Assembly: GCA_043814765.1 (NCBI GenBank)
Contig: JBDRJQ010000028.1
Location: 29,835-93,834, forward strand
Length of the DNA stretch: 64,000 nt
Direction of reading: 5' to 3'
Source of the DNA: Nanobdellota archaeon
GTDB lineage: Archaea > Aenigmatarchaeota > Aenigmatarchaeia > QMZP01
This document shows positions 7,127 to 64,000 of the stretch, one piece after another. The position numbers and the translations under genes are program-made. The notes beneath the pieces are model-generated. The model saw nothing but the letters and a program-made list of their open reading frames with translations. It ran no database searches and had not been told where the DNA came from. Position 1 is the stretch's first letter; each line of letters opens with the position of its first letter.

Positions 7127-7318
7127 TCACTTCACCCAAATGGAGTATTTTCCTTTATGGGTTATGCCAAGATATTGTGCAACTTCAGAGTTAGCAGGAT
7201 CCTTTATGAAAATTATACCTTTCCAGCTTCTGGAAAAGTTTGCCTGATTGCATGTAGGGCATACAGTACCCTTAACAAATCTTTTGCAGTTTCTGCAAAC
7301 CTTTTCTTTTGTGCTCAT
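7127..7318 (-). CDS. spt4: transcription elongation factor Spt4 (RpoE2)
   Basis: 63 aa, zinc ribbon CRNCKRF...CPTC followed by W-G-IIFIKDP...LGI. Immediately downstream of rpoE, as in archaea. Confidence 0.7.
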   Translation of the reverse strand: MSTKEKVCRNCKRFVKGTVCPTCNQANFSRSWKGIIFIKDPANSEVAQYLGITHKGKYSIWVK

Positions 7319-7319
7319 A

Positions 7320-7934
7320 TTATTTATCCCCTAACTTTCTTTCAGATTTTCGTCCGCTCTTCATTCTTACTGTTTTTTCTTCATGAACTGTTTTTCTGTC
7401 CTTCCAATCAATTCCTCCAAGTCCCTGTTGCCTTGTTGTTAAACCAATCTTGTATTCCTTTCCTGTACTGGAAACTGATATGATTCTGGCTGTTACAGAA
7501 TCCCCTTCTTTTAGTATGTTGTGTGTGTCTCTTCCGATAAAAACAGCTTTTTTTGGATCATATGAAACAAAATCATCCATTAGTTGTGATACGTGTATCA
7601 TGCCGTCAAGAGGTCCTATTCTGACAAAAACACCGAATTCTGTTACATCTATTACAAAACCCTTTACTATTTCATGCATGTCTGGTTCGTAAGACAGTAA
7701 CCTGAAATCCACTGGATAGTGTATTGCTCCGTCTCCTGCTAGTATCTTTCCTTCACCAACCTCTTTTATTGATACTATGGATAATGCTACGCCAATATCC
7801 TTTTCTATTGTGCCTTCCCACTTGTCTTCAAGGCTGCTCTTTACAGCGTTTTCTAAACCAAGGCTAAACTTTACAGGCGGTACCCTGACTTTGTCCTTTA
7901 TAGTTAATATCTTGTACATACAATAAAACCTCAT
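7320..7934 (-). CDS. rpoE: DNA-directed RNA polymerase subunit E' (Rpo7/RpoE) with S1 domain
   Basis: N-terminal Rpb7-like domain plus S1 domain (GFVIDVTEFGVFVRIGPLDGMIHVSQL). rpoE-spt4 gene order. Confidence 0.75.
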   Translation of the reverse strand: MRFYCMYKILTIKDKVRVPPVKFSLGLENAVKSSLEDKWEGTIEKDIGVALSIVSIKEVGEGKILAGDGAIHYPVDFRLLSYEPDMHEIVKGFVIDVTEFGVFVRIGPLDGMIHVSQLMDDFVSYDPKKAVFIGRDTHNILKEGDSVTARIISVSSTGKEYKIGLTTRQQGLGGIDWKDRKTVHEEKTVRMKSGRKSERKLGDK

Positions 7935-8704: not shown

Positions 8705-8745
8705 GGGAACAAAAAATGGTTCCCAATTATTTTTTCTTTGATTTT
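8705..8745. terminator. hairpin GGGAAC-N8-GTTCCC flanked by T-runs on both strands (bidirectional terminator candidate)
   Basis: Perfect 6-bp stem at 8705..8724. TTTTTTCTTTGATTTTTTTT downstream on the + strand, and a T-rich run downstream on the - strand after the stop of the 8727..8966 gene. Confidence 0.4.
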
Positions 8746-8966
8746 TTTTCACAGTATTTGCATTTTACACCAGTCCATGTTACAGCCAATATGACGATTG
8801 CAAGTATAGCCATAATCCACTGAACTGCTGCCGCACCAACCAAATCTGGTAAGAACGTAAATACAAGAATCAATACTGCGATTATTGTTAATATCCAATT
8901 AGCGCATGTCATAACAATTACTGGTAAAGGATTAATAAAAAGAAAAGCCTCGGGAGGGATTGTCAT
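8727..8966 (-). CDS. small membrane protein; annotated start overlaps the tRNA 3' end, so internal Met (MTCANW...) is the likelier start
   Basis: Two TM helices and a C-terminal CKYC. First 20 codons overlap tRNA 8946..9139. Confidence 0.35.
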   Translation of the reverse strand: MTIPPEAFLFINPLPVIVMTCANWILTIIAVLILVFTFLPDLVGAAAVQWIMAILAIVILAVTWTGVKCKYCEKKSKKK

Positions 8967-9139
8967 AAACCCTTTTCATGCTCTGGAAGCGCGTGCGCTC
9001 CTTTTGGATTAAACCTTTTCTGAAAAAGGTTTATATTGAACCCCCAACCTTCTGATCTCATGAAGTCATAGCCTAAAAAGGCTCTTCAGATCAGTTGACT
9101 TTTACAAGTCAGATGCTCTACCGATTGAGCTACCGAGGC
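8946..9139 (-). tRNA. tRNA-Thr(TGT) interrupted by two introns: canonical 37/38 intron (46 nt) and a T-loop intron (~75 nt)
   Basis: Read on the minus strand. Acceptor GCCTCGG pairs with CCGAGGC; T8 A9; D-arm GCTC-AATCGGTA-GAGC (G18 G19); anticodon stem TCTGA pairs with TCAGA; loop CTTGTAA (T33, anticodon TGT, A37). Variable loop AGGTT; T-stem GGGGG pairs with CCCTC; T-loop TTCAA|AT reconstituted across the insert; discriminator T. Both inserts contain internal hairpins. Confidence 0.5.
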
Positions 9140-9190
9140 ATACACATTTGTTGTTAATTGGTATTTTAATTCTTTTCTATAATAATAAAC

Positions 9191-9574
9191 ATGGTTATTA
9201 GTGAAATAGTGGGTATGTTCACTCAAATTGCACAGCTGAATATAGTACTGCTTTTAGCACTTCTTTTTATATTTGTTTTTGTAGCCTACAAGCTCCTGAA
9301 AGTTTTAATGAAAGCAATGATTTTCGGTGTTTTAGGCGCTGTATTTCCGTTCTTTGCGACTTATGTTGGAATCAGCATTCCGTTAACAATCACAAACATT
9401 ATATGGTTTGCATTGCTAGGAGTAATGGCATACATAATGTACGCTATTCTTATGGGCGGTGTAAAAACATTAAAGCTTGTTACCAGCCCTTTCAGGGGAA
9501 TGTTCAAAACTAAGCATAAAGAGAAAATAATAATACGCGAGCAGGTTCCGGTTGAAAGGAAAAAGAGACGTTAA
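9191..9574 (+). CDS. membrane protein (4 TM helices), Lys/Arg-rich C-terminus
   Basis: Hydrophobicity pattern only. Confidence 0.4.
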   Translation: MVISEIVGMFTQIAQLNIVLLLALLFIFVFVAYKLLKVLMKAMIFGVLGAVFPFFATYVGISIPLTITNIIWFALLGVMAYIMYAILMGGVKTLKLVTSPFRGMFKTKHKEKIIIREQVPVERKKRR

Positions 9575-20678: not shown

Positions 20679-21977
20679 TTATTGCGTGTCCAAAAATTTG
20701 TCTTCAGTCTTTATTTTCTTTCTCATTATGCGTCCTGCGTCTTGTATGAATTTTCTTACATACTCCCTGTTCATCATTATTTGCGACTTTGGCAGTTCAA
20801 GAACTTTGCCATCCTTAACCAAATCCTTCATTCTTGTTAGATCATTAAAAACATCAAAGTATTTTTCAGAAATAAGTCCTGTTTTTATGAGATGTTTTTC
20901 AAAGGCCTTTGGAATCATCTCATCTTTTGCAGGCAGTTTATTCATGGCTTTCAAAAGAGTGATAACAGTTTCTGACATAACAAGCTGTGATTTGTTTATC
21001 ATGTTTTCTCTTTTAAGCACTTCAATCTTGACTATGAGTTTTTGCATGCAACTAACGAATTTTTTGGCCTTTTCAATCCACTCGTCAAGAACTACACCTT
21101 CTATCGTGGTTTTTTCACGGTGCTCTATCTCTTTTCTGACGTCCAGTATGTCTTCAAGCATTTTCACATACTCTTCGTCTAGAAGCTTCATTTTAACAAG
21201 TGTTTTGCGCAGAACACTAGGCGCTTCGCTTGGTCTTGGCGGAGTCTTACCTAAGAACATCAGAACAGCCTGTGCTGATTCAAGCATGGCATAATAGCAG
21301 TCTTCAACAACCATGTAAATTTTAGCATTCTCAACGCGCTTGATTCTTTTTGGTCCCCGTTCAATATACTTCTCAACAGCCTCCCTGGATGGTTTTATTT
21401 CACCCATCTGAAGAAGCCGTTTAATAGGCATGAAAATGTCCTTATCGTACACAGGAACGCCTTCCCGTATGAAATTGAAAACAATGGGATGACCTATTCT
21501 AACCATGTTCCAGAACTCAGTTAGCATGTAAGGCTGCTGCACGGAGAGGTTTGGTGATAATTTCTTTGCTGTAGCAACCATCTCATCCTCAAGCTTTGCA
21601 CGCTCTCCTGGCGATATTCGATGGCGCGTATCATCAATTATAACAAAAACATCAATATCAGACTCCTCTTTAAACTCTTCGCGGGCAGTTGAACCGAACA
21701 GAACAATGGAGCGGATAATAGGTCCGTGCTTTTTTATAAGCTCTTTTGTAAAACTTTTTAGAATTTTAATTCTTTCTTTCTTGCCAATTTTTTCAGGTTT
21801 TTTCGGTTTTTTTTCCTCTGCAGGTTCCTTATCAAAAACCTCAGCCAGCTCAAGAAGCCTTTTTTCAGGTTTTTTTGCTGTGTGTTTTTGACGAGTTTTA
21901 TGTAAGGTTTTTGGTTTAGAAGATTTTTTAACGGTGGCTCTCTTCTTCTTTGTTTTCAGAGTTTTTTTCTTAGCCAT
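20679..21977 (-). CDS. nucleotidyltransferase-domain protein (Pol-beta superfamily) with Lys-rich N-terminal tail and alpha-helical C-terminal domain
   Basis: hG[GS]x9-13Dh[DE]h-type motif SIVLFGSTAREEFKEESDIDVFVIIDD. Confidence 0.55.
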   Translation of the reverse strand: MAKKKTLKTKKKRATVKKSSKPKTLHKTRQKHTAKKPEKRLLELAEVFDKEPAEEKKPKKPEKIGKKERIKILKSFTKELIKKHGPIIRSIVLFGSTAREEFKEESDIDVFVIIDDTRHRISPGERAKLEDEMVATAKKLSPNLSVQQPYMLTEFWNMVRIGHPIVFNFIREGVPVYDKDIFMPIKRLLQMGEIKPSREAVEKYIERGPKRIKRVENAKIYMVVEDCYYAMLESAQAVLMFLGKTPPRPSEAPSVLRKTLVKMKLLDEEYVKMLEDILDVRKEIEHREKTTIEGVVLDEWIEKAKKFVSCMQKLIVKIEVLKRENMINKSQLVMSETVITLLKAMNKLPAKDEMIPKAFEKHLIKTGLISEKYFDVFNDLTRMKDLVKDGKVLELPKSQIMMNREYVRKFIQDAGRIMRKKIKTEDKFLDTQ

Positions 21978-45197: not shown

Positions 45198-48100
45198 TCA
45201 CAACCCCGACAGGTCCGCCTTCCAGACGCCGTATTCTGTGAGACCGAAAATTAAATATTTATTGTCTGGGGTGAGTGCCAGGTTGTCTGCGACATTGTCC
45301 CTTACCTGGTTGTCTACTATCAGCTCTTTGCCTGGCAGGCCACTGTTTATGATTTTCCAGCTGGCTCCGGCGTCCCTGCTTATGTAAACACCCACGTTGG
45401 TGCTTAAAAACAGTATGTTATGGTTTGGCGGATAAATCAGAAGCGTGTAGAATTCGCTTCCGCTATAAAGGCCGTTCATAATCCTGAACCAGTTCTCTCC
45501 GCCGTCTATTGTTTTCATCACAATACCGCAAAAAGTGTCTTTGTTTCTCTCACAGAAGCCCATGTTCTGCCCGTTCTTAGTTGAGGTATACATTATGCTT
45601 GGATTGTCGCTGTCGATTGCGATTGTGTAAGGCCACTGCTCAGGAGGCATGCCATTGCTTATCATCTCCCACGTTCTTCCTTTATTCAGTGATTTCACAA
45701 CCCCGTTGTATGTTCCTGCAAATAATATGCTGTGATTATGGGGGTGCATGCTCAAAGAAAACATGCCATCATTTCCCAGTTTCAGGCTTGAATCCTCCCA
45801 TGTATGCCCATTGTCCTCGCTTATGAAAAACCCGCTTGGGAAATGACCATAATAAATCTTTCCAGGGACATCAGGGTCAAACAGTATTGAGCTGAACTGA
45901 TACATCCTTCTTTCCCACGGGCTCCACCATCCGCCGCCAAATATGCCCTTTCCAAGACTCTGCCAGCTTTTGCTTGCAGAATTGAATTTATATATCCCGT
46001 ATCCAGCAGTTCCTGCGTAAATATCAGCACCTGTTAAGCCTATTGTTATGACAATATCATCCACATGAATCTCCCCTTCTAGTGATTCAAAAGCAATCCC
46101 TCCGTTCAATAGCGACTCGGTATCAGTATAATCTATCTTCAAATCATCATCAACATAAACCTTAACGTTGTTTCCATTGCCGACAATTTTAATGTCATAC
46201 CACCTGTCTCTGCTAAATGCCATGTCTTTATTTATCAGGTTCGTATGAACGCTATTATAAGTTCGCATCAGGTATAAGCTCCCACTGTTTAGACCTATAG
46301 CATACCTATCACTACCACTAACGCGGTAATTAATATGAACCGAGCCTTTGATTAACTTTACCCTACTCTCGAAAGTGTAATCAGTCCAGCTCTCTGAACC
46401 ACCACTAATCCAGTTATGGTCAATGCCCTGCAAGACATAGTTGCCGCCTTCCTGGATGACAGACCATCCAGTGTCTGACTTCCATCCGTCTGCGTTCCCG
46501 TCCTCAAAATCATCTCCAAGGGGCGGTCCTTCTATGTTTACAACCTTTAGCGATCTTATATCAAGGGTTTTTAGTCCGTCATTCATTTCAGTCCAACTTT
46601 CTCCATCATCACGGGTCACGAACACGCCTTCTTGAGTTCCTACATAAACTGTTTCCGAGTCTTTAGGATCAACAACAACAGCAGTTATAGGTTTCCTGAG
46701 CAACTCATTCTCATTTCCGTTGGCAAACATGCTCACACTCATATACTCGTGAGATCTGTACATTCCCTTTCCGTATGCGCCCATCCAAACGTCTGCCGGA
46801 TTGTTTGGGTCTATAGCAAAACTGTAGTATCCCTGTGTAATTGGATCATCCACAATAATGCTCGGCTGAGCGGTGTTTCTCTCATACCAAGTTTCTCCTC
46901 TATCATCACTTCGGAACATCCCTCCTGGATAAGCAGTTGCATAAATTCGATTAGAATTTGTTGGATCAATTTCAACCTGAATTCTGGAAATGTATGTTTT
47001 TGGTTTGTTGCTTCTGGAATTGTCCCAAGTAATTGAATAATCGTCATTGACAATCCCTGCATAAACCCCGCTTGCCCCTACAGCTGCGTAAACATAACCA
47101 TCTTCAGCTATAAGCGCAGCTGTGCCCAAACTTGGCAAACCCTCATTCTCCTGTTTCCAAGTTTCGCCACCATCACTGCTAACAAAAATACCCTGAGTGC
47201 TTGAGGCTACATACAAAAGATTCGGGTTCTGCGGATCAATCTCAACTGCCATAGTCGCGTGTTCGGTTTCGAGCATACGGGTCCAGGTTTCTCCGCCGTC
47301 TGTTGATTTGTAGGCTCCGCATGCATCCTGCTCTATGTTTTTAGGCAGTCCGGTAGGTTCAATTATATACTCAGGCAGCAATTCGCACAACCCTGCAGCA
47401 TACAGGGTGTTGCTATTGGAATAATCCACATCAATATCGTAGTACCCAAGCCTTGGAAGGCCTCCTTCCTTGTCATCCAGTCTCTCCCAGGTTTCTCCGC
47501 CATCAACACTCTTGAAAACTCCATATCCGTGCTTTGAAACATAAATTGTATTTGGATTGTTTGGATCAACCTCCATTTCAACCGTAGATTCAGCTACGCC
47601 TTCATCATTACCTGGCAGGTTTTCGTTCAGATCTGCTACCATCTCACCATTTATAATCTTTAGTAGTGAACCAGCCGCAACACAGAACGGACGCCCGAAA
47701 GTAGCTGCATAAATCGTATCTGGGTTGTTTGGATCAATTGCTACAGCGCTTGTCAGGACATTAGTTCTATCAAATTCATAATATTCTTCCCAAGTAAGCC
47801 CGCTGTCTTCGGATTTGTGTATAACTGGTTTAAGTCTGTCACATGCGTAAATAATGTCTGGATTTTTTTCAGAAATCGCCAAGCATGTCGGAGACTCAGG
47901 TGCGTTATCAAGCTTCACCCAATTACTTCCTCCGTCAATAGTCTTATAAGTCCCTCCGCCCCAGGTGCCTGCATAAACTATGTCTTTATCCCTTGGATCA
48001 ATCTGAAGCTGTGAATGACGCATAATGGTTGCAAATGTTAGCTCATCGTTAAGTTTACTCCAGGTTTCTCCTTTATTATTGCTCACATAGATGGTTCCTT

Positions 48101-49970
48101 CCTCTCCGATTACTCCTGCGTACATTCTGTCCGGGTTTAGCGGGTCAAACCTGAGCGATGTTATTCCTCTGGAATTCTCAACCCTGAATATCTCGCTCCA
48201 GACGTTTTGGTTTTTGGAATATCTCCAAATAGATGAATGGTTCTCAAATATCTTTGGCGAATACGTGGCATAGATAAAATTGCTGTTCTCTGGATCGATC
48301 TCAATATCATAAGTATAATCAGGGGAATATGTGAGATACCGCCAGCCCCCTTGCGAAGAGGCCTCTGAAATGCCGACACCTATATTGGACGCGTAGATTG
48401 TGCCGGAGTCTTTTGCTATCTCAAAATCAAAAATCTTTGCAGATGAAAAATCCTGAGCGATTTGTGTGAAAGTTCTCCCTCCATCATATGATTCGTATAA
48501 GTCGGTCAGTTCATCAGCCAGCAGGATGTGGTCTGAGTTGTGCGGGTCAATCTTTACATCGTCTCCGGCAGCGACTGGCGTGAATGGTTCCCAAGTATTT
48601 CCAAAATCCCTTGTGACATATGATTCCTGAATAACATTTCCTGAGGTGAACACAACATTCGGGTCTGTTGGGTGGGTCATGACAATGGTGGGGGATGTCC
48701 CTATAATATCACTGTCCATCTTTTTCCATGTTTTCATGCCATCCTCTGACTTAACCATTCCCAGAGCCCATATAGAGCCGGTCTTGCCGTAAGCTATGTT
48801 TGGGTTTTCATAATCAATCAAGAGTGCATCCAAGTTAAAGCCCACTTTTTCAAATACCTTGAGTCTTGGTTCATTGATTCGTTCATAACTAGAGCCATCT
48901 ATCTTAAGTATTGGAATGCCACCATAAGGATTCAGAAGATAATAAGCTGAGCCTGAAATAACAACATCTTCTACTCCATTGGATTCTAAAGTCAGATCTG
49001 TCACAGGGTTCCATGTTTTTCCTCCGTCATAGGATTCTCTTAAGAGCTCAGATATCGGGGAAAACCCCTCATGCACGATGTTGTATCTGAATGGTATCAC
49101 TATGTGTTGAGGATTGTCTGGGTTCTGAACAATCTTTGAAATAATAACACCGTCAGGTGTGTCAAAATCAATCGTGGACCATGTCCCACCAAGGTCTTCT
49201 GAAACGTACAAATAATTTTTTGAGAGTTCCCCTCTGCCACCTTTCATTACATTGATAGCTACCAAGATTCTATTTCCAAGCGCAATAATATTTCGAATTC
49301 CTATATCCTTATCATTTGTCGACAGTACTAAATCTTTCCAGTCAAAATTTCCCGAGGCCTCCCAAGAAGCTAGGTCAGCATACGATATTTCACCACCACC
49401 CATCTTTCCGTCACCAGAAATTATGAAAAGTTTATTGTCACTAACAAAGGGCTTTCCAAAATACCTGTCTGATATTTTTACAGGGTTTCTATTATTGTCA
49501 TAGTAATAAAGACCATCATCACAAATAAAAAATAATTTATCCTTGAAAAGTGCCATTGAATGAACACTGCCTATGATATCCTGTCCCTGCATTAGCTGCC
49601 AGCTTTCGCCTTTATCTACAGACTTCCGTATACCTTCAATAGTTATTACATACAATTCATGCGGCGGGAGGGGATTTTGTATCAATTGTTTTATACGCCC
49701 TCCTGGCGGGCCATTCATGGATACCCATGAAATGCTTGAATCAGCTTCCGGGTGGTACTGGACTTCTTCTCCCCCAAGTTTTTCCTGGACGCATGCATTA
49801 TTTTTGCACGCATAACCAACAGGGCAGATTTTAGTTTGATACTGTTTATCATCAACACAGCATTCGTATGGGCAGTATCCATCCACAAGTGGACTTTCTT
49901 CTGTAACGCATCCGCTGATAAGAACAATTCCTATAATCAATAATCCAATCAAAATTTTTGATTTCATCAT
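45198..49970 (-). CDS. 1590-aa secreted multi-propeller protein with 15 or more BNR/Asp-box (S-x-D-x-G-x-T-W) repeats, N-terminal Cys-rich module and an internal concanavalin/LamG-like (DUF1080-like) domain
   Basis: Signal MMKSKILIGLLIIGIVLISGC. Repeats SYDGGKTW, SEDLGGTW, SNNKGETW, TIDGGSNW, SEDSGLTW, SVDGGETW, STDGGETW, SSDGGETW, SDDRGETW, TRDDGESW, SEDNGHTW, SLNKGRTW, TIDGGENW, SRDAGASW. LamG-like block DDFEDGNADGWKSDTGW...YDIKIVGNGNNVKVYVDD. Confidence 0.6.
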   Translation of the reverse strand: MMKSKILIGLLIIGIVLISGCVTEESPLVDGYCPYECCVDDKQYQTKICPVGYACKNNACVQEKLGGEEVQYHPEADSSISWVSMNGPPGGRIKQLIQNPLPPHELYVITIEGIRKSVDKGESWQLMQGQDIIGSVHSMALFKDKLFFICDDGLYYYDNNRNPVKISDRYFGKPFVSDNKLFIISGDGKMGGGEISYADLASWEASGNFDWKDLVLSTNDKDIGIRNIIALGNRILVAINVMKGGRGELSKNYLYVSEDLGGTWSTIDFDTPDGVIISKIVQNPDNPQHIVIPFRYNIVHEGFSPISELLRESYDGGKTWNPVTDLTLESNGVEDVVISGSAYYLLNPYGGIPILKIDGSSYERINEPRLKVFEKVGFNLDALLIDYENPNIAYGKTGSIWALGMVKSEDGMKTWKKMDSDIIGTSPTIVMTHPTDPNVVFTSGNVIQESYVTRDFGNTWEPFTPVAAGDDVKIDPHNSDHILLADELTDLYESYDGGRTFTQIAQDFSSAKIFDFEIAKDSGTIYASNIGVGISEASSQGGWRYLTYSPDYTYDIEIDPENSNFIYATYSPKIFENHSSIWRYSKNQNVWSEIFRVENSRGITSLRFDPLNPDRMYAGVIGEEGTIYVSNNKGETWSKLNDELTFATIMRHSQLQIDPRDKDIVYAGTWGGGTYKTIDGGSNWVKLDNAPESPTCLAISEKNPDIIYACDRLKPVIHKSEDSGLTWEEYYEFDRTNVLTSAVAIDPNNPDTIYAATFGRPFCVAAGSLLKIINGEMVADLNENLPGNDEGVAESTVEMEVDPNNPNTIYVSKHGYGVFKSVDGGETWERLDDKEGGLPRLGYYDIDVDYSNSNTLYAAGLCELLPEYIIEPTGLPKNIEQDACGAYKSTDGGETWTRMLETEHATMAVEIDPQNPNLLYVASSTQGIFVSSDGGETWKQENEGLPSLGTAALIAEDGYVYAAVGASGVYAGIVNDDYSITWDNSRSNKPKTYISRIQVEIDPTNSNRIYATAYPGGMFRSDDRGETWYERNTAQPSIIVDDPITQGYYSFAIDPNNPADVWMGAYGKGMYRSHEYMSVSMFANGNENELLRKPITAVVVDPKDSETVYVGTQEGVFVTRDDGESWTEMNDGLKTLDIRSLKVVNIEGPPLGDDFEDGNADGWKSDTGWSVIQEGGNYVLQGIDHNWISGGSESWTDYTFESRVKLIKGSVHINYRVSGSDRYAIGLNSGSLYLMRTYNSVHTNLINKDMAFSRDRWYDIKIVGNGNNVKVYVDDDLKIDYTDTESLLNGGIAFESLEGEIHVDDIVITIGLTGADIYAGTAGYGIYKFNSASKSWQSLGKGIFGGGWWSPWERRMYQFSSILFDPDVPGKIYYGHFPSGFFISEDNGHTWEDSSLKLGNDGMFSLSMHPHNHSILFAGTYNGVVKSLNKGRTWEMISNGMPPEQWPYTIAIDSDNPSIMYTSTKNGQNMGFCERNKDTFCGIVMKTIDGGENWFRIMNGLYSGSEFYTLLIYPPNHNILFLSTNVGVYISRDAGASWKIINSGLPGKELIVDNQVRDNVADNLALTPDNKYLIFGLTEYGVWKADLSGL

Positions 49971-62163: not shown

Positions 62164-64000
62164 ATGAATTTTAAGCCATTTTTAGTTGTTTCAATATTGA
62201 TGTCCTTGCTACTGATTCCTGCAATTTCTGCATTTCCGGCTTACATAACTCAGCAAGGAAGGCTTGTAAACTCTACCACTGGCAATTCTGTAAATGGAAC
62301 ATATAACATGACTTTTAGATTTTACACGGCAGAAACTGGCGGTACTGATGTATGGGATGAGGGACAAGAAAACGTTTCTGTAACAAACGGCATCTGGCAT
62401 CTTACTCTCGGAACAAACACCACACTGGACTTGAACTTTACCCAGGATTATTGGATGAGCATACAAATTAACGGCAATTCTGAAATGAGCCCTAGAAGAA
62501 GAATCACATCGTCTGCTTATACATTTTATGCAAACAACACAGATTTGCTGGATGGAAAGGATTCCACTGAATTCTTATCAATTAACGGAAGCAACATAAC
62601 TGTTCTTGATGCTAATGAAACATACTGGATAGGTTCTGATTCCAACTGGTGGGGTAAAATTTTAAGCAATACTTTCCGCGGTGTTGCAGGAATATTTGAT
62701 TCTATAAACGTTCTTGGCAGTTTCTTTGTTTACAGCAACAACACGATAAACATGGATGCAAACGTTTCTGTATCCAGCGGTGCTGTTGTTATCTGGTCCA
62801 ACGGCACAGTTGAAGCAACAGACAGCGATACAATCTACACAGGTGTAGATGATGTTTGGGTCAACGTTACCGGTGACACAATGACTGGTGAGTTAAACGT
62901 GTCTAATAAAATATACCTATACCCTAACGGTACAATTTTTTTAGACGGTAATTTAAAGGTTCCAACAACTGTTGTTATTTGGTCTAACGGTACAGTTGAG
63001 GTAGCAGATAGTGATACAATCTATACTGGTGTAGCAGACAATTGGGTAAACGCTACTGGCGATTACATGACTGGTGAGTTGAATATCTCTGGTAAGATAT
63101 TCCTTTATCCAAACGGAACCGTGGAAGTTAATGGTAATTACAGAGTACCTAGCGGTGTTATTATATGGAGTAACGGTACTGTTGAAATTGGCTCTCAAGC
63201 AACATACGATGGTGTAGCTGATAACTGGGTAAATGAAACAGGCGACACTATGACTGGTAATCTATCCATGAGCAGTAAGTGGTTACTAGATTTCAGAGCA
63301 AGACTAGGTTGGGGAAACATAACAGAGTTCCCTGCTAACTGCACAGCCGGTTACTATGTTCATGGTATCAGCGAACTTGGTTTAACCTGCGTTCCTGATG
63401 ATGATAACGATACAATATATGCTGGGGTAGCAGATGACTGGGTTAATGTTACTGGGGATGTAATGACTGGTGATCTAAACATCACAGATGGTACTAATGA
63501 AGTTAACATCAGTGCAGGTGGTGTAATCAGTATTAACACAAGTGGTGATAGTCCTTTTGTTATTTACAACAGGACTGAGTTGTTATTTGAATTAAATGGC
63601 ACTGGTGGTTTGGATCTTAACTGGTTTAGAAGCTGTACACTGAAAACAGACGCTAACGGTAACATGGTTTGCGGTACGGACAACAATGATAATACTGTTT
63701 ATGTCGGTGTAGCAGACAATTGGGTCAATGAATCGGGTGATTTAATGACTGGTGACTTGAACATGACAGACGGAGCATCATGGACTAACATAAGCTCGAC
63801 GGGATTCATACGAATGAATACCAGTGGTGAGAGTCCGTTCATTGTTTATAACAGAACAGAATTGTTGTTCGAGTTTAACAACACAGGCGGTTTGGATCTT
63901 AATTGGTTCAGAAGCTGTAATTTGAAAACAGATGCTAACGGTAATGTTATCTGCGGTGTTGATGATGATACTAACACTCATTATGCTGGGGTAGCTGATA
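62164..64000 (+). CDS. secreted protein with tandem phage-tail-fibre-like repeats (TG-D-x-MTG-x-L), 3'-truncated by window edge
   Basis: Signal MNFKPFLVVSILMSLLLIPAISA. Repeats of the form D-S-D-T-I-Y-T-G-V-A-D-N-W-V-N-x-T-G-D-x-M-T-G-E-L-N (six or more copies) plus ~100-aa higher-order repeats (LDLNWFRSC-x-LKTDANGN). No stop before 64000. Confidence 0.5.
   Translation, partial: MNFKPFLVVSILMSLLLIPAISAFPAYITQQGRLVNSTTGNSVNGTYNMTFRFYTAETGGTDVWDEGQENVSVTNGIWHLTLGTNTTLDLNFTQDYWMSIQINGNSEMSPRRRITSSAYTFYANNTDLLDGKDSTEFLSINGSNITVLDANETYWIGSDSNWWGKILSNTFRGVAGIFDSINVLGSFFVYSNNTINMDANVSVSSGAVVIWSNGTVEATDSDTIYTGVDDVWVNVTGDTMTGELNVSNKIYLYPNGTIFLDGNLKVPTTVVIWSNGTVEVADSDTIYTGVADNWVNATGDYMTGELNISGKIFLYPNGTVEVNGNYRVPSGVIIWSNGTVEIGSQATYDGVADNWVNETGDTMTGNLSMSSKWLLDFRARLGWGNITEFPANCTAGYYVHGISELGLTCVPDDDNDTIYAGVADDWVNVTGDVMTGDLNITDGTNEVNISAGGVISINTSGDSPFVIYNRTELLFELNGTGGLDLNWFRSCTLKTDANGNMVCGTDNNDNTVYVGVADNWVNESGDLMTGDLNMTDGASWTNISSTGFIRMNTSGESPFIVYNRTELLFEFNNTGGLDLNWFRSCNLKTDANGNVICGVDDDTNTHYAGVAD

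Follow-up and report, generated by a model that had tools for sequence, protein, structure and literature searches.

The minus strand of the 64-kb stretch of DNA analyzed here (the window) carries, at positions 9139-8946, a tRNA-Thr(UGU) gene of three exons and two introns with a precursor span of 194 nt. In minus-strand order it reads GCCTCGGTAGCTCAATCGGTAGAGCATCTGACTTGTA, 46 nt of intron 1, ATCAGAAGGTTGGGGGTTCAAT, 75 nt of intron 2, and TCCCTCCCGAGGCT. Exon 1 (9103-9139; tRNA positions 1 to 37) holds the 5′ strand of the acceptor stem, the D-arm, the 5′ strand of the anticodon stem, the anticodon UGU, and A37; exon 2 (9035-9056; positions 38 to 59) holds A38, the 3′ strand of the anticodon stem, the variable loop (AGGUU), the 5′ strand of the T-stem (GGGGG), and part of the T-loop (UUCAAU); and exon 3 (8946-8959; positions 60 to 73) holds U60, the 3′ strand of the T-stem (CCCUC), the 3′ strand of the acceptor stem (CCGAGGC), and the discriminator U. 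CCA is absent from the gene sequence. When both inserts are deleted in silico, ARAGORN calls a perfect 73-nt tRNA-Thr(tgt), and energy folding of the spliced 73-nt sequence gives the cloverleaf as its minimum free energy (MFE) structure. The spliced tRNA has a 7-bp acceptor stem, U8, G18G19, U33, A37, a 5-bp T-stem (GGGGG/CCCUC, one G·U pair), and discriminator U.

Two flanking signals can be read from the sequence. An AT-rich box (ATTAAAAT; 9163-9170, minus strand) lies at −31 to −24 from the tRNA 5′ end, a position that suits the usual archaeal TATA location, and is a candidate TATA box. Directly after the discriminator comes a T-rich run (TTTCTTTTTATT; 8934-8945, minus strand), in which the sequence following the discriminator reads TTTCTTTTT; since oligo-T is a known archaeal termination signal, this run is a likely transcription stop. 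On the opposite side of the gene, 51 nt (9140-9190) separate the tRNA 5′ end (9139, minus strand) from the ATG (9191, plus strand) of a divergent 127-aa membrane ORF, and the single AT-rich box at 9163-9170 stands about 24 to 28 nt from both. It may serve as a shared bidirectional TATA box for two leaderless transcripts, the tRNA and ORF 9191-9574.

Judged from its proteins, the host is a DPANN archaeon nearest to genomes labeled Aenigmatarchaeota. The window encodes Rpo7/RpoE′, a Pelota/aRF1-type protein, and Spt4, which identify the host as archaeal; its Rpo7 is 100% identical to a protein of an NCBI MAG labeled Nanoarchaeota, and the next Rpo7 relatives (55 to 73% identity) are mostly labeled Aenigmatarchaeota.

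Standard tools pass over the gene. ARAGORN reported no tRNA in the whole 64-kb window and none in the region with its intron options, and Rfam gave no tRNA, intron, or ribozyme match in the window, whether gathering cutoffs or E ≤ 1 were applied. Loosening ARAGORN to a very permissive threshold yielded only a false tRNA-Leu. The gene had been proposed by an earlier sequence-only reading as a tRNA-Thr(TGT) with two introns, one of them a 46-nt insert at 37/38. ARAGORN with intron search made no call on the unspliced DNA and recovered the same gene model after intron removal, and once intron 2 was gone it called intron 1 (9102-9057) by itself. The conserved positions that the reading had listed (T8, G18G19, T33, A37, GGGGG/CCCTC, and discriminator T) hold on the spliced sequence, and its two-intron model as a whole is borne out by the cloverleaf that ARAGORN finds after splicing, by bulge-helix-bulge (BHB) motifs at both junctions, and by an ortholog.

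We scanned for BHB motifs with the layout outer helix h, 3-nt bulge, 4-bp helix H, 3-nt bulge, and outer helix h′, setting the cut sites after the second base of each bulge; the scanner agrees with the published geometry, in which the first two anticodon bases lie within the 4-bp helix (PMC4090602). In an unbiased scan of 8930-9160, the best two motifs coincide exactly with both intron junctions. Intron 1 (9057-9102, minus strand; 46 nt), located by the BHB scan and ARAGORN, occupies the canonical 37/38 position. Its h is the 5-bp anticodon stem, its H is CUUG/CAUG (3 of 4 pairs, one U·U mismatch), its bulges are UA↓A and AG↓A (arrows, predicted cut sites), and its h′ is AAGUCA/UGACUU (6 bp). 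Intron 2 (8960-9034, minus strand; 75 nt) interrupts the T-loop at 59/60 and has the top-scoring BHB of the region. There h is the native 5-bp T-stem and H is UUCA/UGAC (3 of 4 pairs, one U·C mismatch), in which U54 to A57 of the T-loop pair with the intron's 3′ UGAC; the bulges are AU↓A and AA↓U, and h′ is UAAACCUUUUUCA/UGAAAAGGGUUUA, 13 bp (the scanner, at its cap, counts at least 8). Half of the splicing helix at intron 2 is thus supplied by the T-loop itself. Both motifs are full hBHBh′ structures whose sole defect is one mismatch in each central helix, and neither intron has the missing or disrupted bulge or outer helix that defines a relaxed BHB. The earlier suggestion that splicing here needs an endonuclease tolerant of relaxed motifs is weakened: because both bulges and outer helices are intact and each H has a single mismatch, a broad-specificity endonuclease is not clearly required.

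The BHB motifs that the sequence-only reading expected at both junctions were found, the T-loop one in the 59/60 register. That reading had correctly placed an intron of ∼75 nt in the T-loop but put its junction at 58/59 (TTCAA↓...↓AT), where the BHB favors TTCAAT↓...↓T at 59/60, a position on the published list of noncanonical intron sites (PMC4090602). A 58/59 junction would leave the gene otherwise the same and give a spliced T-loop of UUCAAAU in place of UUCAAUU. The two choices differ at base 59 only, either one restores a 7-nt T-loop with U54, U55, C56, A57, and A58, and ARAGORN accepts the 58/59 product as well. The central helix of that register would be GUUC/AUGA, however, with 1 pair in the window, whereas the 59/60 register has 3 of 4 pairs in the window and in the closest related genome (L001), 4 of 4 in homologous T-loop introns, and first rank in the scan. 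We therefore consider 58/59 improbable and use 59/60 throughout.

The closest other genome (L001; Rpo7 81% identical) has the same tRNA with both introns, upstream of glutaredoxin and Rpo7. This locus is base-for-base identical in eight separate assemblies (L001, L081 to L086, and L101), so the ortholog is not an assembly artifact; it counts as the one independent ortholog carrying both introns. Between the window and L001, 4 of 73 exon bases differ, all of them within two compensatory acceptor pairs (5-68, C-G to U-A; 6-67, G-C to C-G) that join exon 1 to exon 3 across ∼180 nt, and exon 2 is identical at 22 of 22 bases. Over the same comparison the introns show 12 substitutions and 19 gap columns; among these differences is one of 16 nt in a hairpin of intron 2. 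Exons and BHB motifs are conserved, and the constraint is specific to the exons; compensatory-only exon changes set against drifting introns argue for a functional, spliced tRNA rather than a pseudogene. A dead gene, in which a repeat inserted into the T-loop stays unspliced, would account for the silence of the standard tRNA finders and for the presence, as intron 2, of a dispersed repeat whose copies are also found outside tRNA genes (see below). It would not account for the pattern of exon and intron divergence, the complete BHB at the insertion, the recurrence, in many tRNAs of related genomes, of an insertion with a BHB at this same site, or the intact promoter-like and T-run signals on the flanks, and we regard it as very unlikely.

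We also weighed the idea that unrelated pieces of DNA assemble into a cloverleaf by chance once two arbitrary deletions are allowed. BHB-like motifs are indeed frequent by themselves: at the (3,5,6) threshold the window has 154, against ∼97 in shuffled sequence. Because such motifs are common window-wide, their counts alone are no evidence, and BHB motifs were used only jointly with cloverleaf restoration and shuffles. From the shuffle counts, the chance of a BHB this good is about 3e-6 per given junction pair. When all 15,343 BHB candidates in the window were spliced out and the products scanned with ARAGORN, the yield was the tRNA-Thr plus one spurious tRNA-Leu, whereas the identical pipeline on 8 block-shuffled windows (∼13,000 candidates each) gave 0 tRNAs. 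Together with a syntenic ortholog that shows compensatory changes, these results leave chance assembly a negligible probability, and we count it as already refuted. The spurious tRNA-Leu(taa) at 63530-63735 was rejected for its G·U-rich acceptor stem, its 205-nt "intron," and its location inside a repetitive coding region (the coding sequence near 63400-63900 is internally repetitive), and a tRNA-Thr call in L014 was rejected because it lies within coding sequence. No other tRNA gene was detected in the window (1-64000) by ARAGORN, Rfam, or the BHB-splice pipeline.

Group I or II self-splicing introns, or a split or permuted tRNA, are extremely improbable: group I introns are known in archaea (PMC6125680), but the inserts here are merely 46 and 75 nt, far from a catalytic core of hundreds of bases matching known models, and match no Rfam intron or ribozyme family even at E ≤ 1, and the three exons lie in linear order on a single strand, in a span of 194 nt, with BHB motifs present. 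The locus is thus very probably a real two-intron tRNA-Thr(UGU) gene of a DPANN archaeon whose introns are of the BHB type and spliced by protein enzymes.

On this gene model, transcription would run from the AT-rich box, ∼27 nt upstream, to the T-run that follows the discriminator, both transcript ends being predicted, and would give a 194-nt precursor in which the acceptor, D, and T stems are retained. Exon bases would pair with intron bases at each intron to form a helix, a 3-nt bulge, a 4-bp helix, a 3-nt bulge, and a second helix; the 4-bp helix would use bases 32 to 35 in the anticodon loop, and in the T-loop it would be U54-A57/UGAC stacked on the native T-stem. An archaeal splicing endonuclease would presumably cut after the second bulge base, at 37↓38 and 59↓60 in an order we leave as predicted, an RtcB-type ligase would probably join the three exons, and CCA would then be added by a presumed further enzyme. 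Pfam and NCBIfam searches found no splicing endonuclease, ligase, or CCA-adding enzyme gene among the window ORFs, and tblastn with an approximate EndA query, a weak test, found no match in the fetched loci. A 432-aa ORF (20679-21977, minus strand) with an NTP_transf_2 nucleotidyltransferase domain was considered as a CCA-adding enzyme; a PDB search gave no relative at E < 1e-3, and no NCBIfam equivalog matched.

Folding of the precursor gives a mixed picture. The plain MFE fold has a 3×2 internal loop at the T-loop in place of a BHB, and a one-base register shift gives the full BHB; forcing it costs 3.8 kcal/mol above the MFE. Forcing the intron 1 BHB costs 12 kcal/mol above the MFE, and likewise in the ortholog of L001. 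This cost arises because intron 1 pairs with the 3′ strand of the anticodon stem, which is sequestered by an alternative helix, UGAUCUGAAG/CUUCAUGAGAUCA (9057-9102 with 9051-9056). The energy model leaves out the enzyme and the tRNA body, and we therefore treat the competing fold as a caveat rather than a refutation.

Related genomes carry a range of tRNA intron arrangements. Their tRNA-Thr(UGU) genes have introns at 32/33 and 37/38 (L004), a 37/38 intron only (L010), or a 37/38 intron plus a T-loop intron of ∼250 nt (L035), and in L036 the 5′ part is disrupted. The tRNA-Pro of L010 and several L090 tRNAs have T-loop introns at 59/60 with the same BHB and a central helix of 4 of 4 pairs, and the T-loop intron BHB architecture of the window is shared by L001, L010, and L090; some homologous T-loop introns in L090 and L091, on a partly manual reading, have no h′. 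The metagenome contig L090 (1380-1612, 5354-6800) holds a cluster of tRNAs, at least five of which (Gly, Val, Val, Leu, and one more) carry a 59/60 intron; these introns are 16 nt to ∼260 nt long, and the long ones contain tandem copies of the repeat described below plus an inverted copy at the 3′ end. A tRNA-Ser(GGA) in L048 (11905-12165, plus strand), missed by ARAGORN, has a D-loop insertion and, in the anticodon loop, an intron of ∼170 nt whose 3′ part is a full inverted copy of that repeat ending exactly at the 3′ exon. In our sample, multi-intron tRNAs are common in the Aenigmatarchaeota-labeled group. The earlier remark that such introns are known in Thermoproteales and some DPANN but uncommon is therefore right in its first part (PMC4090602, PMC5829648) and does not fit this clade, as sampled here, in its second.

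Intron 2 contains the core of a dispersed repeat family (8995-9036, minus strand; covariance model R1, 60.5 bits, E = 6e-12). The core comprises hairpin P1 (9033-9024/9019-9010), a linker (AUCCAAAA, 9009-9002), and the base of hairpin P2 (9001-8986); the repeat unit can be written as the hairpin TAAACCUUUU/AAAAGGUUUA, the same linker, and then GGAG...CUUC CA. The part that recurs covers the initial 42 nt of intron 2 together with the base of the second hairpin, and three pairs of P1 show compensatory changes across the family. Our census drew on fetched loci totaling ∼1.1 Mb and on a single metagenome scan with an exact pattern. The 64-kb window contains no copy besides intron 2, Rfam has no family for the module, and no copy was found in IMG/VR viral contigs.

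Copies in tRNA introns have the orientation of the host tRNA. The stronger copies score 45 to 64 bits with the core model, which matches introns in the window, L001, L004, L090, L091, and L092, along with L010 at 37.6 bits (E = 2.8e-6). These matches span Thr, Pro, Ser, Val, Gly, and Leu genes and make this a family of introns with shared sequence. By position, they occur at 59/60 of tRNA-Thr (window, L001), 32/33 of tRNA-Thr (L004), and 59/60 of tRNA-Pro (L010), in a T-loop intron of L091, in a D-loop insertion of tRNA-Ser (L092, BHB not resolved), and in at least five tRNAs of L090, some with tandem and inverted copies.

Copies outside introns are inverted relative to the neighboring gene and mostly end 0 to 17 nt before its start codon or RNA 5′ end. 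They lie upstream of Spt4 and S24e (L048), an L2-like ORF (L049), and ORFs in L092, L094, L096, L099, and L102; copies of the same type precede a tRNA in L093 and the 3′ exon of tRNA-Ser in L048. Outside the window, the listed copies of the family are at L048, 10656-10696, 11006-11046, and 12075-12116; L049, 8352-8386; L092, 95-137 and 1178-1222; L093, 421-464; L094, 562-603; L096, 1376-1416 and 1779-1820; L099, 73-114; and L102, 489-530. Exceptions to the upstream, inverted pattern are L096 1376-1416 and L098 2588-2628. No consistent BHB was found around the nonintronic copies. The gap between Rpo7 and Spt4 is 1 nt in the window (7318-7320), 4 to 8 nt in close relatives, and 89 nt in L048 (10604-10692), where it is filled by the repeat module; a gap of 89 nt against 1 to 8 nt elsewhere looks like an insertion into a tight operon. 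At the nonintronic copies, ATTAAA stands 20 to 29 nt before the start in gene orientation, and because it resembles the ATTAAAAT box upstream of the window tRNA, a promoter-type role is possible. In its orientation upstream of genes, the module may act as a promoter or terminator-promoter cassette for leaderless transcripts.

A tentative and, in our judgment, somewhat doubtful reading of the family is that a module of ∼75 to 110 nt spreads within and between these DPANN genomes and that the clade's tRNA introns were born from an intergenic mobile element. Copies inserted in tRNA orientation would persist since the UUCR of the T-loop would pair with the 3′ end of the element and build a BHB, and the insertion would be spliced out. 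With a repeat that recurs in many tRNAs and, inverted, before genes, it might become possible to test how archaeal tRNA introns arose.

The two-intron gene structure is already known and is not new in kind. Multi-intron tRNA genes with noncanonical BHB introns have been described from Crenarchaeota/Thermoproteales (Sugahara et al. 2007, 2008; reviewed in PMC4090602), and the gene described here resembles them in combining a canonical 37/38 intron with a second intron elsewhere in the gene, both presumably removed by endonuclease at BHB motifs. It differs in that its host is a low-GC DPANN archaeon and not a hyperthermophilic crenarchaeote, in that its introns, at 46 and 75 nt, are long compared with the published median of 12 to 25 nt (PMC4090602), and in that both motifs are full hBHBh′ and not relaxed. 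For DPANN lineages, raised numbers of noncanonical and multiple tRNA introns are reported, as are predicted tRNA sets that are incomplete (Kaneta et al. 2018, PMC5829648; Fujishima et al. 2011, PMC3239211), and such introns are reported to co-occur with endonuclease variants (PMC5829648, PMC4090602, PMC4033280). The window fits this picture of incomplete tRNA sets, because the standard finders see no tRNA in 64 kb. The survey in PMC5829648 sampled Pacearchaeota, Woesearchaeota, Nanohaloarchaea, and Micrarchaeota, whereas the Aenigmatarchaeota-like host of this gene lies outside those groups, and we found no published description of tRNA introns in the Aenigmatarchaeota-like group.

Intron sequences shared across tRNAs have likewise been reported in Thermoproteales, in 2010 work summarized in PMC4090602 and PMC4033280, and as there, near-identical sequences occur here in different tRNA species and at different positions. 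Unlike the Thermoproteales introns, the present family also occurs outside tRNA genes, inverted and ending at the start codon or 5′ end of a neighbor; those two reviews (PMC4090602, PMC4033280) make no mention of non-tRNA copies for Thermoproteales. Intron 2 may also be compared with a tRNA-Trp intron that carries a box C/D small RNA (cited in PMC4090602): both are long archaeal tRNA introns with a conserved structured module that goes beyond the needs of the BHB. No box C/D or H/ACA motif was found by eye in intron 1 or intron 2; unlike the tRNA-Trp intron, intron 2 lacks C/D boxes and matches nothing in Rfam, and no guide function is evident.

With this gene model, an essential tRNA gene overlooked by both ARAGORN and Rfam is recovered, which illustrates concretely how DPANN genomes come to look short of tRNAs. 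The model also adds an Aenigmatarchaeota-like lineage to those with multi-intron tRNAs that have a T-loop (59/60) intron, and it clears up a false overlap with a small ORF next to the tRNA. The longest mechanical ORF there (8727-8966, 79 aa) reaches into the tRNA 3′ end, and the sequence-only reading took this as an overlap with an annotated ORF start. There is no such overlap in the public annotation, because the NCBI protein MFH1445287.1 starts at Met 8912; the 79-aa form is not on record at NCBI. The same reading's guess that the true start is the internal Met was sound, as the public protein is exactly the 61-aa form from 8912 (8727-8912, minus strand). This small membrane ORF matched no Pfam family and is absent at the orthologous locus. 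Many ORFs of the window are likewise without a Pfam family. Farther along, a 1590-aa ORF (45198-49970) adjoins two transglutaminase-core proteins.
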